Shown here piece by piece: positions 4,756 to 64,000 of a stretch of 64,000 bases of DNA. Source of the DNA: a virus. Each line of letters starts with the position of its first letter. Within the stretch, counting starts at the first letter, position 1. Made by a program: the position numbers and the translations under genes. The notes below the pieces were generated by a model. The model searched no databases. It saw only the letters and a program-made list of their open reading frames with translations, and was not told where the DNA came from. Location of the stretch: IMG/VR virus record IMGVR_UViG_3300050166_000025, positions 1-64,000 of that record; one strand, written 5' to 3'.

Positions 4756-5048
4756 AGGAGAGTGAGGGATTCGAACCCCCGGTCCTGTTACAGACTTCGG
4801 TTTTCCTTACTACTATAGCTTTCGCTACCATTTAAAATGTTTGATAGTCTGGACTTTATCTCAACCATATCATTTCTGACTTAGGCCATCCCCGTCAAGT
4901 CTCTACACCTTCCTATCACTAGGCTTGGCTCGGGGTTGCCATTTTACAGGTTTCTCCGAATTTGAGGATGTTTGCAACATATCTTTTCAAATATGCAGCT
5001 CGATTTTAGAATTAAGACCGACGCGTTCGACCGCTCTGCCAACTCTCC
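4756..5048 (-). tRNA. trnS: tRNA-Ser(UGA), interrupted by a group I intron (exons 5048-5014 and 4805-4756)
   Basis: Spliced sequence GGAGAGTTGGCAGAGCGGTCGAACGCGTCGGTCTT|GAAAACCGAAGTCTGTAACAGGACCGGGGGTTCGAATCCCTCACTCTCCT has acceptor GGAGAGT/ACTCTCC, anticodon stem TCGGT/ACCGA, loop CTTGAAA, long variable arm and TTCGAAT T-loop. CCA is not encoded. Confidence 0.92.
4806..5013 (-). mobile_element. Group I self-splicing intron (IC3/trnL-like), 208 nt, no ORF
   Basis: 5' exon ends in U and the intron ends in G. Core elements AAATTCGGAGAAACC (P), AACCCCGAGCCAA (Q), GGTGTAGAGACTTGACGG (R), GAGATAAAGTCC (S); P1 has U.G at the splice site; P9 TAGC-GAAA-GCTA. Confidence 0.9.
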
Positions 5049-58966: not shown

Positions 58967-61585
58967 TTATCCTAAGCTTGAAGTTAGCATTCCAACTGCT
59001 TCTCCATAATTAGAGCCGGCAACTTTTAGAATACCATCTACTACTTCTTGAGCTTTAGCTTCATCGAAGTCTGCTTCAAAAGCTTGCTTTAAAACTTTGA
59101 ATGCGTATTCTTTAAATTGCTCATCAGAAGTAATATCCTCCTCGTTGATTTCAACTTCCACTTCTTCTGTTAAATTAGTATCTGAGATGCTAACTTTATA
59201 AGTTTTACCATTGAATTCAAATTCTTTTTTGCCTTCTTGCTTAGCTTTAGCTGCAGCGTATACAAAGGCATTGCCTTCAGAAACTACTAATTCTAAATCC
59301 TTGTCTTTATCTGCAATAGCATCATTTAATTCTGATTCTAATGAATTTTTCTTAGCAGTTAATTCTTTTAACTTAGCTAATAGTGGTGCTTTAGCATCTC
59401 CTTCGGCTTTCTTCCAAGAGTCAACTGTTGATTTCATCTCCGCTGTTACTTTAGTCCACTCGTTTTGAATTTTATTGATTGAACGAGCTTCATCGATAGA
59501 TTCTACCGATTCTTTAATTGATTTAAGATTCTTAACGATAGTGTCAACTGAATCATTATATTTACCATAAGCAACTCCAGATTTAACGGCCATATTAACT
59601 ACTTGACCATCATCATAAATGTTATATGAGCCTCCTGCAAATTCTTCTCCATCAACATCTAAATCAAATGAATCTTCTTCTAAAGTTCTCTGATTGACAG
59701 TACACTTGCAATTGTCTTTCTTTGAAATAGCTTTTGCATAAACTTCTGCTACTTTTTTAGTTTCAGCTTTAGAAAGACCCATAGGTTCTTTTTTACCCCA
59801 TAGAGACCAAACCGTATCGGCTTCATTTAAATCTTCACCTTCTTTAATTGCATGTTTTGCCTCCTCTTTATCCCACTTTGATTTTGGCATAGTGCCAACT
59901 CTTTCAATCTTTTCGTCGTCTAATAATTTATCTACGTTTTTATCTGCCCATGATTTAGCAGCCTTATAGTCTTTGAATGTGTCTATTAATTTTTTACCCT
60001 TTTCGAGCTCAACGTAAGCAACGTACTCTTCAGATTCATTAACTTCAACTGATTCAAATGCTTTGTCTTTTTTAGGGGCTGGAAGAATATCACCTACCTT
60101 TGGTAATTTATCGTATTGTTTTAGCCAATTTTCTTCGAGCATCACACCAAACATCATGCGAAATCTTTTATCATCAAGCTTTGATACGTCTGGGAAAGAT
60201 GAATGAATAACTTTATCAACGCTGACAACATAAATTTCATCAGCTTTTTTATCAATTGCGTAAGTTACTAGAGTCTTATCGAAATCTTTAGAACCAAACA
60301 TGCCTTCAAAAACTTCAACTGATTCTGGAATCATTCCTAATTTTTTAACAGCGATTGAAAATCTGTCTTCTAATTTTTCAAAAGCAGATTTAATAGCTTC
60401 TAATTCTTTAGTCCACTCTTTATTTCCTTTTGTAGCATGTAATAAATTACCAATTTGAACTTGTAATTTATTCATAAGGTCAGCTGTTTTGTCATGGATA
60501 TCGATGTCTTCATTTACTTCGATTGCTTCCTCTATTTTATCGCCTTTGATTCTACGATAAACAATGCCGTAAACATCTCCATTGCCAAAATCAACGTCAC
60601 ATTGATCGCTACTGCATTTTACTACTTTACCTTTCTTGTCATTCTTTACCATTGTTAGTTCATCACCAACTTTAGGTTTATTGGCTTCGTTCACTTCTAA
60701 AGATTCTGCTAAACCATATTTGTTAATAGTTTGCTTAACGAAGTTAGCTGCATCTTTTACAGAGTAATCCATGTCTTTTGCTAATTTCTTTAAGAAGTTT
60801 TCAATCATTTTCTCTTCATAAGAAAAACCCTCTGAGACTTCAACTGATTCTTTAACGGGCTTTAATTCTTTATCGTCGTATACATCAGCCATGTACCACT
60901 TACCATCTCTCTCATCGAATAAGTAAACGTATTCTGAATTAGATTCGTTACCAGCATCCTTTAAATATTTTGAGATAGATTTAACATCAGACTTCATTGT
61001 CATATCTCTGTCCTTCTCATCTCTATCTCTACCATAGAATAAAGTGATACCTCTATCAGGCTTATCAAAATCTTGTGGTTTATCTCCAATTTGTTTCTCT
61101 AAAGATGAAATACCGTACTTTCCTAAATCTAATAATTTATTAAGTGTTTTTGAATCTTTATAGTGCTTTAGTAAAGGAATTCTTGTGTTTGGGTTACCGT
61201 CCCAGTGAACATACACCGATGTGATTTTTCCGGCCTTGTCAATCTTACCAATTTGAGAACGAGTTGCTTCAGTAACTAAAGACTCGTTTGTAGACTGAAC
61301 TTTCTTGCCTTCTTCATCTTCGTGCTTTTTAGGCTCGCCCATTTTAACTTTAGCAGCTTCAATATCCTCAGCTCTATCTTCGTTAAAAATTTTAGCAACT
61401 AGGGCTGTTCTTTTCTCCTCGTCTAATTCATCAAACGAAGTAACTCCCTCTTCTTCAAGAGTTTGACCAATCTTAGCTAAAAGTTGCTCTCTTTTTGTCT
61501 TGTTTTCTTCGTGCATCTTAATCGAAGCCTGTTGGTTCTTAACCTCAGTAAAGCTCTTAAAAGATGAAATTCTTTGTACTGACAT
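58967..61585 (-). CDS. 872-aa putative capsid-internal polyprotein
   Basis: Eleven recurring E-S/A-V/L/I-E-V-x-E-like linkers separate unrelated small modules; own late promoter and terminator. Confidence 0.7.
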   Translation of the reverse strand: MSVQRISSFKSFTEVKNQQASIKMHEENKTKREQLLAKIGQTLEEEGVTSFDELDEEKRTALVAKIFNEDRAEDIEAAKVKMGEPKKHEDEEGKKVQSTNESLVTEATRSQIGKIDKAGKITSVYVHWDGNPNTRIPLLKHYKDSKTLNKLLDLGKYGISSLEKQIGDKPQDFDKPDRGITLFYGRDRDEKDRDMTMKSDVKSISKYLKDAGNESNSEYVYLFDERDGKWYMADVYDDKELKPVKESVEVSEGFSYEEKMIENFLKKLAKDMDYSVKDAANFVKQTINKYGLAESLEVNEANKPKVGDELTMVKNDKKGKVVKCSSDQCDVDFGNGDVYGIVYRRIKGDKIEEAIEVNEDIDIHDKTADLMNKLQVQIGNLLHATKGNKEWTKELEAIKSAFEKLEDRFSIAVKKLGMIPESVEVFEGMFGSKDFDKTLVTYAIDKKADEIYVVSVDKVIHSSFPDVSKLDDKRFRMMFGVMLEENWLKQYDKLPKVGDILPAPKKDKAFESVEVNESEEYVAYVELEKGKKLIDTFKDYKAAKSWADKNVDKLLDDEKIERVGTMPKSKWDKEEAKHAIKEGEDLNEADTVWSLWGKKEPMGLSKAETKKVAEVYAKAISKKDNCKCTVNQRTLEEDSFDLDVDGEEFAGGSYNIYDDGQVVNMAVKSGVAYGKYNDSVDTIVKNLKSIKESVESIDEARSINKIQNEWTKVTAEMKSTVDSWKKAEGDAKAPLLAKLKELTAKKNSLESELNDAIADKDKDLELVVSEGNAFVYAAAKAKQEGKKEFEFNGKTYKVSISDTNLTEEVEVEINEEDITSDEQFKEYAFKVLKQAFEADFDEAKAQEVVDGILKVAGSNYGEAVGMLTSSLG
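60042..60850. repeat. 14-bp direct repeat ACTTCAACTGATTC x3 encoding the ESVEV linker (60042-60055, 60312-60325, 60837-60850)
   Basis: Exact copies read from the sequence; degenerate copies near 60516 and 60693. Confidence 0.8.
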
Positions 61586-61631
61586 AGTGTTCTTTTTTGT
61601 TTTTAATATAAGTGTATTATAATCTTGTTTT

Positions 61632-61639
61632 TATATATC
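61632..61639 (-). promoter_or_regulatory. Late promoter GATATATA
   Basis: Recurrent motif before the polyprotein gene. Confidence 0.65.
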
Positions 61640-61643
61640 TAAC

Positions 61644-61986
61644 TTATTCACTTTCAAACGTAACTTTCTTTATTTCATAAGTGAATTGCTCTTGTTTGTA
61701 GATTTGCTGTCTCGCTATGCCATGTTTATATAGATAGTTTTCCCATTCTAGAGTGCATAGATTGTCAACAAAATCAACAATTAAGACATCGGTTTTTGAC
61801 TCATGCTGTCTTAGCCCTCTACCAATCGACTGTCTAATAATCACTTCTGATTTAAAAGACTCTGTGAAAAAGACACTGTGTATTTTTTTGATTGAGATTC
61901 CTGTTGAAAACGTTCCGTCAATATGAGGCAACGATAACAACCGCTGCCTCTTCCGCATTTATGTTTTTATGAGCTGTTGGCTTCAT
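61644..61986 (-). CDS. uvsW: UvsW helicase C-terminal fragment, interrupted by a 4-nt insertion (needs +1 recoding)
   Basis: ATG 61986 gives MKPTAHKNINAEEAAVVIVASY, then TGA C, then +1 frame GTFSTGISIK...RQSIGRGLR...VDFVD (motifs V and VI). Confidence 0.75.
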
Positions 61987-62002
61987 GTTCCTTTATCTTT
62001 TT

Positions 62003-62953
62003 TTATAGTTTATTAAATTTGTAACCTTCTGTGTTTATTGCGGCCTGACTTTTTTTACGGCTCGTAAGCTGTTGAGCTGGCAATCCTGTATTTGCAAATT
62101 GTCTTATCAGAGTTATATTGAAATTGAATTCATTGACTATTGCATGTAAACCTTCTCTATACAAAATATTGCCGTCTCTATCTATGATTTCGTATTTATC
62201 TCCTGGCTTTTTCTTTCTATTTCTCATTTTTTCAATGAATTCTGGATCTTGCCAATGCTTTTTTATTGTGCTTCCCGCCTTTTCTCTTTTAGCAGGATCT
62301 TTGTTGACATCATTCATTTTATTTTTAAATGAAATACGTTCTTCTTCACTCATATTTTCATATCTCTTGATGCCTCTTTCGCTAGCAACATTCGGATTAT
62401 TCTTAAAGTATTCTTTCATCTGTTCAGACTTTATTAATTTAAGTTCATCTGTCCAATTCTCTTTATTGATCTCGCATCTTTTTTCGTACTGTTCTTCGCT
62501 TAAATTGTCCCATCCCTTTTTTGATCTTCGGCCCTGTTCTTCGGATGACAATTTTTTCATAGATTCAGATCTTTTTTTACAAAAAGAATCATATTTTTCC
62601 TTGTCGTTTTTAAGTGTTTCCCATCCCTTCTTCGCTGCAGCCGAAACCAAATCAGAATCTTTATAAACTTTAGAGTTCATAAAATTAAGAGTGCGTTGAT
62701 ACGCCCTATTATTGTAAGCTTTAAATAAGATTTCATGAGCCTTAATGTGATCTTCATATTTCAACCTTATCATATTCCAACTTTCAGTAATGTATTCAGG
62801 ATACTTTGACCTTGGCAATATATGATGAACTTCCGAATATGATTCGTTATCGTATGTGTAATTTAATAAAAAATCAATGTATTCTTCTAAATGAAGAGGT
62901 GAATCTGGAAAACCTTCTGTTGATATAAAGATATTGTAAATTTCGTCTTTCAT
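62003..62953 (-). mobile_element. Free-standing HNH homing endonuclease (Mob-like) inserted in uvsW
   Basis: EVHHILPRS...NMIRL...HIKAH HNH motif; basic S..K..W repeats; own late promoter at 62958-62966. Confidence 0.85.
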
Positions 62954-62957
62954 ATAC

Positions 62958-62966
62958 TATATATTC
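62958..62966 (-). promoter_or_regulatory. Late promoter variant GAATATATA for the HNH gene
   Basis: Motif ends 4 nt upstream of the HNH ATG. Confidence 0.5.
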
Positions 62967-62989
62967 GTCAAACTTTACGATAATACCAG

Positions 62990-64000
62990 TTATAGTTCTT
63001 TTATTTTTTGAATGATCCATTCATCATCTATATCATCGTCTAGTGTAATATCCTTTGCAAACTTAAAGCTGCCGTCCGATAGTGGCACCTTTGCGTACTG
63101 TAGTACCTTTATTATTTTTTCGCCAAACTCGATGATAGTATGGTCGTCTTGAGAATTTTCCATTTTCTTCTTATGCTCTTCTCTAATGTCCTTATCGGTA
63201 CCGCCGTCAACGTAATATACTTTCTTATTGCTCTTCTCTCTAAGCGCCTCGTATAGTTTTCTACCGTGTTCGATTCGGTGAAAAAGTACCAGAGAATTCC
63301 TTGGTACTCTGGAAATGACTGAGACAATGAAATCAAGCCTTGCCTGATTATTGACCACATAGTTTTGCTCCAGTTGAAAGACGTCTTTATTTTCATAACG
63401 GTTTAATGCTAAATCTTGGAATGCTTGTTTTGTTGTTTCTGGGGCATAATTCATTTCAATCACTTTCACTTTGCATCCTGCAATATAGCCTTCTTTTTGC
63501 AAGAAAGCTGCTTTTACCTCTGTGATAACCGGTCCGGTTTGCGACATTAGGGTTAATTTGTCTAGGGTTCCTTCCTTTGGAATGGTTCCTGTCAAGCCAA
63601 ATTTATAGCTTGCATTTCTACACTTACCTAAGATTTCTTTAATAGATGCTGATTTCATCTTGTGACACTCGTCAATTATAACTGCGTCAAACTCGTCGAA
63701 GTAGGCTACGTCTTTCTTAACCAGAGACTGGTATGTACCTATTACTACGTTTGAGTTGGGCTTAATAGTTTGTCCTGAAAATATTTGTTGAATTTTGATT
63801 CTAACCCCGTTTCGCCAGTTAAAATCTTGAAAGTCCTCAGTCGCTTGTACAACCAGTGAAACGTTAGGCACAATGAAAAGAATCTTAGCTGCCTTTTGAT
63901 GCTCTAACATATAGGCAACCGTCATGAATGAAATCATTGTTTTACCAGCGGAAGTTGCTAGTTCCGATAAGGACCTTTTGAATTTTAGGATATTAAAGGC
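62990..64000 (-). CDS. uvsW: UvsW SF2 helicase N-terminal part (starts beyond the window) with a non-helicase C-terminal tail
   Basis: ATSAGKT (Walker A, near 63940-63960), IVPN, TYQS, DECH, GLTGT and YYVDG; homology stops at KKMEN. Confidence 0.9.
   Translation of the reverse strand, partial: AFNILKFKRSLSELATSAGKTMISFMTVAYMLEHQKAAKILFIVPNVSLVVQATEDFQDFNWRNGVRIKIQQIFSGQTIKPNSNVVIGTYQSLVKKDVAYFDEFDAVIIDECHKMKSASIKEILGKCRNASYKFGLTGTIPKEGTLDKLTLMSQTGPVITEVKAAFLQKEGYIAGCKVKVIEMNYAPETTKQAFQDLALNRYENKDVFQLEQNYVVNNQARLDFIVSVISRVPRNSLVLFHRIEHGRKLYEALREKSNKKVYYVDGGTDKDIREEHKKKMENSQDDHTIIEFGEKIIKVLQYAKVPLSDGSFKFAKDITLDDDIDDEWIIQKIKEL

Follow-up and report, generated by a model that had tools for sequence, protein, structure and literature searches.

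Efficient programmed translational bypassing is, to our knowledge, almost entirely a matter of one system, phage T4 gene 60 and its homologues in topoisomerase genes. Bonocora et al. are said to have described T4 gene 39, mobA and gene 60 in 2011 as a mobile element with a 50-nucleotide (nt) translational bypass. The gap of gene 60 protects the cassette allele from the MobA endonuclease. In Aeromonas phage Aeh1, a Mob-type HNH endonuclease gene splits an essential gene (nrdA-a/mobE/nrdA-b), and the two polypeptides reassemble; we know of no recoding reported there. The gene prfB, which encodes release factor 2 (RF2), carries a programmed +1 frameshift at CUU UGA C. Here, we describe a viral uvsW helicase gene that is split by a cassette with a Mob-like HNH gene and that bears, in its downstream half, four extra bases (TGAC) that break the reading frame. 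It lies at the end of the window, a 64,000-nt stretch (positions 1 to 64,000 of IMG/VR record IMGVR_UViG_3300050166_000025) from a metagenome-assembled contig of 151 kb (~47% complete; GC content 36.7%). We find the same gap in 23 distinct split alleles, beside a covarying hairpin, with the codon register switching exactly at the gap. The downstream half is probably made by ribosomal recoding, either a forward hop or a +1 shift. All features of the uvsW locus are read on the minus strand:

63158..64000, minus, continuing past the window end: N-part of a UvsW-like superfamily 2 (SF2) helicase, motifs I-IV (Pfam ResIII 6.7e-24, DEAD 8.6e-14)
62990..63157, minus: C-terminal extension that the insert adds to the N-half; alignment A4 shows it conserved in every split allele
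62003..62953, minus: free-standing Mob-like HNH homing endonuclease, 316 amino acids (aa), EVHHILPRS motif (PHROG and tblastn matches)
61957..61986, minus: start of the C-half at ATG 61986 with the insert-encoded N-terminal extension MKPTAHKNIN; every split allele has an M(A)KP... start, conserved with changes at third positions
61921..61956, minus: insert-encoded "homR" AEEAAVVIVASY, with 61% DNA identity to the parental 33 nt of the intact allele L004
61925..61950, minus: predicted mRNA hairpin, 11 base pairs (bp); 5' arm 61950-61940, loop 61939-61936, 3' arm 61935-61925
61917..61923, minus: candidate recoding site; take-off Tyr codon TAT 61923-61921 and gap TGAC 61920-61917 (UGA stop plus C)
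61644..61916, minus: helicase C-part in the +1 frame (GTFSTG..., motifs V-VI, QSIGRGLR, TAA 61646-61644; phrog_9690 DNA helicase 6e-27)

The host gene is identified as a helicase by Pfam (ResIII/DEAD), by PHROG (DNA helicase) and by tblastn matches to annotated uvsW genes. With motifs I, II (DExH), III and IV in its N-part and V (ASYGxFSTG) and VI (QxxGRxxR) in its C-part, it is colinear with the ~500-aa intact alleles and belongs to the UvsW-like SF2 helicases. Our intact comparison set comprises ~80 relatives with 70-84% aa identity, each a single uninterrupted gene. The closest of them, L004, served as the reference for boundary mapping; the N-part is 84% and the C-part 90% identical to it at the aa level. 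Intact alleles read ...KKKME[A/N]G[DE][ED]VVIVASYGTFSTG..., relative to which the window has exactly four extra bases.

The N-half runs through ...REEHKKKMEN into 54 residues found in no intact homologue (SQDDHTIIEFG...KEL, 63154-62993), followed by TAA at 62992-62990. The Asn codon AAT that precedes them (63157-63155) could be of host or insert origin. The C-half opens at ATG 61986, 16 bases past the stop of the HNH open reading frame (ORF) and with GATAAAGGAAC upstream. This ATG begins 22 codons, MKPTAHKNINAEEAAVVIVASY, which end in ...GTT ATC GTT GCC TCA TAT and are closed by TGA 61920-61918, with C at 61917. From 61916, the +1 frame reads GGA ACG TTT TCA ACA GGA, or GTFSTG. An earlier note on this DNA had reported the split, the stop, the HNH ORF, ATG 61986 and the four extra bases at 61917-61920, and both its coordinates and its reading are correct. 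The hairpin, the Hint-like nature of the extension and the sister gap types discussed below are absent from that note.

DNA identity to L004 stops after ATG GAA (63163-63158) and resumes exactly at GGA 61916. The insert is thus ~1.24 kb long (about 63157/63154 to 61917), has TGAC as its last bases and has replaced 33 nt of the host gene (AGDDIVIVASY) with its own copy. That copy, homR, stands in for the deleted (A)GDDIVIVASY and holds the motif V strand in frame 0.

This layout closely follows that of the MobA element, which comprises a C-terminal extension of ~44 aa, MobA, an N-terminal extension with a homR of ~15 aa and a bypass cassette, and which ends at the landing codon (bioRxiv 10.1101/2022.08.31.505936). 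Our boundary mapping against L004 agrees with this insert layout (same source), and the end of the uvsW insert exactly at TGAC bears out the parallel to T4 mobA/gene 60 that had been drawn earlier. In both systems, a Mob-family HNH gene splits a conserved DNA-metabolism gene, an in-frame extension is added to the first ORF (~44 aa there, 54 aa in uvsW), and the second ORF gains an N-terminal extension with a homR that replaces deleted host codons. In both, a stop directly follows the take-off codon (TAT TGA in the window). Relatives of the MobA element without the nuclease or without the bypass exist (bioRxiv 10.1101/2022.08.31.505936); likewise, both systems include relatives that lack the nuclease and keep the recoding cassette, and relatives that lack the gap.

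The two systems also differ. The host gene is a topoisomerase gene in T4 and uvsW here. The gap is 50 nt in gene 60 (20 nt in the shortest MobA clade), whereas it is 4 nt in the window and 1-11 nt in its sisters. The gene 60 stem-loop includes the take-off codon, while the uvsW hairpin lies wholly 5' of it. The matched take-off and landing codons of gene 60 are not seen in the window (UAU/GAC), although they occur in sister alleles (UCG/UCG and CUU/CUR). The extension has no detectable sequence similarity in T4-like phages. Relative to MobA/gene 60-type cassettes, what is new is thus the other host gene, the minimal gap, the 5' stem-loop and the near-cognate landing triplet. Relative to the split nrdA of Aeh1, the downstream half of uvsW additionally bears a frame-breaking gap.

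We find TAT TGAC GGN in 23 distinct split alleles, which come from independent metagenomes in two collections and whose helicase C-parts are down to ~45% identical. With a pattern scan for Ala-Ser-Tyr-TGAC-Gly-Thr-(Phe/Leu), we recovered 21 helicase loci from viral contigs, and metagenomes yielded more. A scan that let the four gap positions vary freely (NNNN) had TGAC in 14 of 14 matches. The gap always accompanies the hairpin and the split architecture, and it occurs in none of the ~80 intact alleles. Its four bases are invariant (entropy 0 across the 23 alleles). In frame 0, the five codons before the gap have entropies of 0.40/0.05/1.03 at the three codon positions; in the +1 frame, the 30 codons after it have 0.87/0.50/1.57. 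This switch of register exactly at TGAC indicates that both sides are translated, each in its own frame. The stretch MKP...ASY is preserved with third-position changes.

The last base of the gap is C in all 23 alleles, while GAC makes up only 30% of the Asp codons in the same genes (GAT, 70%). The constraint on this base therefore acts at the nucleotide level, on the fourth base of a weak UGA-C stop or on part of a landing triplet. No ATG, GTG or TTG lies between the previous stop and the Gly codon, in the Gly frame, in 12 of the 35 frame-broken alleles, and in many of these 35 the Gly frame is open for only 1-5 codons. The conservation of the gap across lineages, the frame switch exactly there, the 12 startless alleles and the adjoining covarying hairpin all support the earlier claim that the downstream half needs recoding.

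All alleles whose gap contains a stop have a hairpin of 9-14 bp, formed by the 26-32 nt that precede the Tyr codon; 3-4 nt separate its 3' arm from the stop (1 nt in the 11-nt gap type). The window hairpin has a predicted energy of -18.5 kcal/mol (z-score -3.4). Across 25 distinct sequences, the energies range from -14 to -22 kcal/mol; for the corresponding stretch of 37 intact alleles, the mean is -7.3. These 25 sequences correspond to the 23 junction alleles, as two pairs differ only upstream of the stretch used for classification. Pairs were counted with a script anchored at the 3' end; alignment A3, made with a covariance model, was left out (reverse-strand and intact-allele matches). Counted by 3' position, all pairs are canonical, many are G.U, and compensatory double changes occur at six or more stem positions (for example, G-C/C-G, A-U/G-C/C-G and C-G/U-A). 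Codon choice shapes the stem: where the Ala codon of VAS changes synonymously from GCC to GCG, the 5' arm shows a matching change from GAG to GAC (Glu to Asp). The hairpin is an RNA structure of the sense strand, because on the opposite strand each G.U pair would become a C.A mismatch.

Split alleles were also collected without regard to the gap, through an alignment of the N-half extension (A4). Related lineages have gaps of 1, 7 and 11 nt at the same spot. The sister junctions are as follows (extra bases in square brackets):

Tyr take-off: TAT or TAC [TGAGGAC]; TAT [TGAGAAC]; TAT [TAGGTGC]
Leu take-off: CTT [TTGACTG or TTGACTA]
Ser take-off: TCG [TGAATGATTCG]
T-run: one extra T in a T5 run (ACC TTT TTC TAC), with a GIY-YIG gene as cargo
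Split alleles without a gap: L194, L203, L188-190, L198, L206

In all gapped types, the take-off codon has a cognate or near-cognate counterpart in the triplet that directly precedes the Gly codon. The match is exact in TCG[TGAATGAT]TCG, where the brackets enclose the 8 nt between take-off and landing. It is near-cognate in CTT[TTGA]CTG or CTA, in TAT[TAGG]TGC (G.U at the middle position) and in TAY[TGAG]GAC or AAC; the T-run type goes from TTT to TTT. The stop after the take-off codon is TGA or TAG in the sisters, and in the Leu type TGA stands in the +1 frame only. Since the 11-nt spacer is not 3n+1, a +1 shift by itself does not account for every type. Judging from these codons, forward movement with re-pairing in the P site can cover all of them.

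The T-run break was seen in five alleles with GIY-YIG cargo (L181-L184 and L229), from two diverged lineages and several samples. It lies 6 nt further on and has no hairpin. A +1 slip of tRNA-Phe on UUU-U would, going by the sequence, repair it exactly. Five of the gapless alleles (L188-L190, L198 and L206) have an altered motif V, reading IVASSNCFSTG, IVASSATFSTG or IVASSQTFATG against the usual ASYGTFSTG. This alteration may be an alternative escape from the resident HNH or GIY-YIG nuclease.

In the mechanism that we propose, a mobile cassette consisting of the extension, the HNH gene, the N-terminal extension with homR, the hairpin and TGAC would have inserted into motif V, so that the helicase would be made as two polypeptides. 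The second would start at ATG 61986 and be read in frame 0 as MKPT...VVIVASY, up to a ribosome with UAU in the P site and UGA-C in the A site. Termination at UGA-C is slow, and this weak context could open a time window. At that point, the 3' arm of the hairpin would fill roughly 12 nt of the mRNA exit channel, with the 5' arm and loop already outside the ribosome. The hairpin could refold only if the mRNA slid forward, and refolding would thus pull the mRNA in that direction. Pairing of mRNA on its exit from the ribosome has been proposed as a driver of forward bypassing in gene 60 (bioRxiv 10.1101/2024.12.09.627546). In a hop, peptidyl-tRNA-Tyr would re-pair 4 nt downstream on the near-cognate GAC to give ...ASY-GTFSTG, with the predicted tryptic peptide NINAEEAAVVIVASYGTFSTGISIK; a +1 shift would give ...ASY-D-GTFSTG. 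Translation would then continue through motifs V-VI. By analogy with MobA, the gap probably keeps the cassette allele from being cleaved by its own HNH enzyme.

The likeness to prfB that the earlier note had drawn is weak. Both have a UGA-C stop as a slow A-site step, and both would need a forward shift into the +1 frame to yield the full protein. The site in the window is nevertheless not of the prfB type: re-pairing of UAU at +1 (AUU) is not possible, and a Shine-Dalgarno sequence is lacking 3 nt upstream, a place taken here by the 3' arm of the 9-14 bp hairpin. The autoregulatory logic of prfB is also missing from uvsW, and the 11-nt sister gap is not a +1 event.

Several observations weigh against ribosomal recoding of this kind. 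All of the sequences are metagenomic contigs, and the recoding is a prediction from sequence. In the TGAC type, the UAU take-off and GAC landing triplets match at two of three positions, unlike the matched pair of gene 60; re-pairing of UAU at +1 is poor too, and neither textbook mechanism fits cleanly. A +1 shift in which the spacer is translated (as D, ED, EN or RC) predicts gap lengths of 3n+1, and six of the seven types have such a length. The invariance of TAT is not significant, given that TAT makes up 78% of the Tyr codons in these genes. The hairpin persists, in weaker form, in the gapless split allele L194, and it may therefore have another role. Finally, 18 of 31 alleles have Shine-Dalgarno-like purine runs immediately 5' of the hairpin, so that a model of the initiation type could also be accommodated. 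Such runs recall the hairpin-bridged ribosome-binding sites of T4 genes 38 and 25. Under a model of this type, termination-reinitiation or hairpin-bridged internal initiation would release a 22-aa leader at UGA, and translation of the C-part would begin afresh at a nearby non-canonical codon (AUU within UAUUGA, or GUG in the 11-nt type). The helicase would then consist of three pieces, or its C-part would lack the VVIVASY strand. AUU does overlap the stop in all TGAC alleles, and the GTGA of the 11-nt type is a classical start/stop overlap that also fits translational coupling. Yet AUU starts are rare, L219 and L220 have ACT in place of ATT, the Gly frame is one codon long in L222 and L223, and the T-run type has no candidate start. 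The frame-0 VASY strand, moreover, is under selection right up to the gap, as would hardly be expected of a free 22-aa peptide. We consider this explanation unlikely. A canonical start at ATG 61958, which the earlier note had named as a possible escape from recoding, does not hold in general: this ATG results incidentally from AAT-G in frame 0, lies elsewhere in L084 and is absent in most lineages.

A second alternative is that no functional protein is made from the C-half, the helicase being inactive or decaying, and that the gap and hairpin are DNA-level features involved in endonuclease immunity or recognition, or are a repair scar. TTGAC is indeed common to the Tyr-type and Leu-type gaps at the DNA level, and a contig that is less than half complete has room for a second uvsW. 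Nevertheless, across lineages of 45% identity and above, motifs V-VI of the C-part are intact and its third codon positions show a strong periodicity; G.U pairing speaks for RNA rather than duplex DNA; and the HNH-less alleles L101, L110 and L123 keep the extension, leader, hairpin and gap intact. This makes a DNA-level explanation somewhat less likely still than a fresh start of translation. The window is a metagenome-assembled contig, so that a sequencing or assembly error has to be considered; we give it next to no weight, as the identical 4 nt recur in distinct alleles from independent samples of both collections, always accompanied by hairpin and split and never in an intact allele. The TGAC of the earlier note is thus real, and recoding during translation is the reading that we prefer.

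The cassette is mobile or has been repeatedly lost. The HNH gene matches phrog_12434 (HNH endonuclease, 2.3e-21) and phrog_655 (homing endonuclease), and T4-like coliphages supply its best tblastn matches, which are MobD-like HNH genes (23% identity, E 5e-7). Homologues with 59-61% identity occupy the same position in L084-L086, three loci that share the split, the extension and the sequence ...VVIVASY TGA C GGA with the window. The three alleles L101, L110 and L123 have no nuclease gene, yet their extension, leader, hairpin and TGAC are intact. A tree of the C-part (91 columns, and so of limited resolution) groups the window with an intact allele as its sister (99/90) and requires at least five changes of the TGAC label. 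The cassette is patchily distributed on this tree. This patchiness indicates that the cassette moved between helicase lineages or was lost repeatedly. The late promoter that had been attributed to the HNH gene was not recovered: a sigma-70-type scan gave nothing above chance, and no TATAAATA match was seen.

Other cargo and elements occur at the same locus. In L094, L097, L105 and L194, the cargo is a non-nuclease ORF of ~270-300 aa (MS.QWGKIDRAN.SPIW..., with Gly-rich GTGY...SF.GGGGTGA repeats). The HNH- and TGAC-bearing uvsW genes of L085 and L086 (IMGVR_UViG_3300024273_001641 and _001578; ~1824-3250 of L085) also carry a genuine intein in motif II. It lies between ...FDAVVVDE and CHKAKS, runs from CLHPDSLIIMTDG... 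to ...NHNYFANDLNVSN and contains a 327-aa ORF. One gene therefore hosts two different selfish elements. In L062 (IMGVR_UViG_3300008999_000229), an otherwise intact uvsW has an in-frame TGA at 4847-4849 in place of the GGA Gly codon of MEA-G-EE, which its near relatives retain. This is the exact position of the left boundary of the cassette. The allele is known from a single short contig, and the TGA may reflect a nonsense mutation, an error in sequencing or the recoding of TGA as Gly.

The extension of the N-half has a predicted fold of its own. AlphaFold2, run on alignment A4, gives it four strands plus a helix with a predicted local distance difference test (pLDDT) score of 92.5. Sequence profiles from Pfam, PHROG and the Protein Data Bank (PDB) gave no match, Foldseek returned nothing at E<=1, and tblastn found no match in cultured GenBank phages, including T4-like phages. 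A wide VIA-align search covered 48,161 chains and returned 34 with Z>=2, of which 28 were inteins, bacterial intein-like domains or hedgehog Hint domains. The best Z was 4.8, with 4.7 for residues 55-99 of the Npu DnaE N-intein; these values are low, as expected for 50 residues. The half-Hint assignment is made because of this enrichment of intein and Hint chains, and not because of any single match. Alignment A4 contains no conserved catalytic residues in the extension, and we found no conserved Cys/Ser nucleophile at the junction and no C-intein partner. A functional intein was thus rejected, with no intein family matched and the nucleophiles missing. We infer that the extension is a splicing-dead half-Hint that may dock the short MKP... 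leader.

Fractured genes, in which split inteins flank a free-standing homing endonuclease located between the two halves, have been described (Dassa et al. 2009, PMC2677866). Like these, uvsW is a DNA-metabolism gene of a metagenomic phage that is found in two parts with a free-standing endonuclease between them, and its extension has a Hint-like sub-fold. It is nevertheless not a split intein gene: blocks A, F and G are absent, as are a terminal Asn and a +1 nucleophile, and the extension is only ~50 aa and the partner leader ~10 aa long. Because the intein blocks and nucleophiles are missing and both parts are short, protein splicing is not expected, and the halves would presumably associate non-covalently. 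The two helicase halves probably dock through the Hint-like extension.

TGA is an ordinary stop among the long ORFs of this genome (TAA 83, TGA 10, TAG 4), and there are no tRNA genes on the contig. An alternative genetic code was therefore rejected; recoding of TGA would, in any case, leave the frame unrepaired. An Rfam search of 61000-64000 (E<=10) gave only chance snoRNA-like matches and no intron, and a group I/II intron or other known RNA was rejected. Among cultured phages in GenBank, there is no near-DNA match to the locus and no close relative of the C-part; the closest GenBank relative, LR756500.1, has an intact uvsW. In the literature on UvsW with bypassing, frameshifting or homing endonucleases, we found no description of such a site.

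The only other TATTGACGG in the genome (minus strand, ~140701) is unrelated. It lies in frame inside a 1100-aa ORF with long collagen-like Gly-X-Y repeats (GTSGVNGTSGIDG...), at ~138505-141804 of the same contig, minus strand, outside the window. Directly downstream of uvsW, at 58967-61585 on the minus strand, is an 872-aa acidic ORF with recurring ESVEVNE-like motifs; a homologue is found in the same position in L085 and L101. The C-part also matches phrog_17901 (5e-14), a PHROG "DNA helicase" family of only 109 positions. Orphan C-halves of split uvsW genes may thus already lie unrecognised in annotated phage genomes. Gene callers will render such a locus as a truncated gene plus an orphan 100-aa "DNA helicase" ORF.

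The uvsW signal is far simpler than that of gene 60: a 5' hairpin, a stop codon and a 4-nt gap. Together with the natural series of gaps of 1, 4, 7 and 11 nt and dozens of covarying variants, it provides a compact and testable model. The questions that it addresses include whether mRNA refolding behind the ribosome drives forward slippage, how strictly the landing codon must match, and how endonucleases and recoding co-evolve as a form of immunity. We suggest, with rather less confidence than we place in recoding as such and slightly more doubt than assurance, that the 1-11 nt gaps could form a natural family of minimal bypasses or hops. Such a family would be driven by an exit-side hairpin and a stop, land on cognate or near-cognate triplets, confer self-immunity borne by Mob-HNH or GIY-YIG genes within a helicase motif, and have its protein halves joined by a splicing-dead, intein-derived half-Hint. 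If true, ribosome hopping would be a recurrent and evolvable companion of homing endonucleases rather than an oddity of T4 gene 60.

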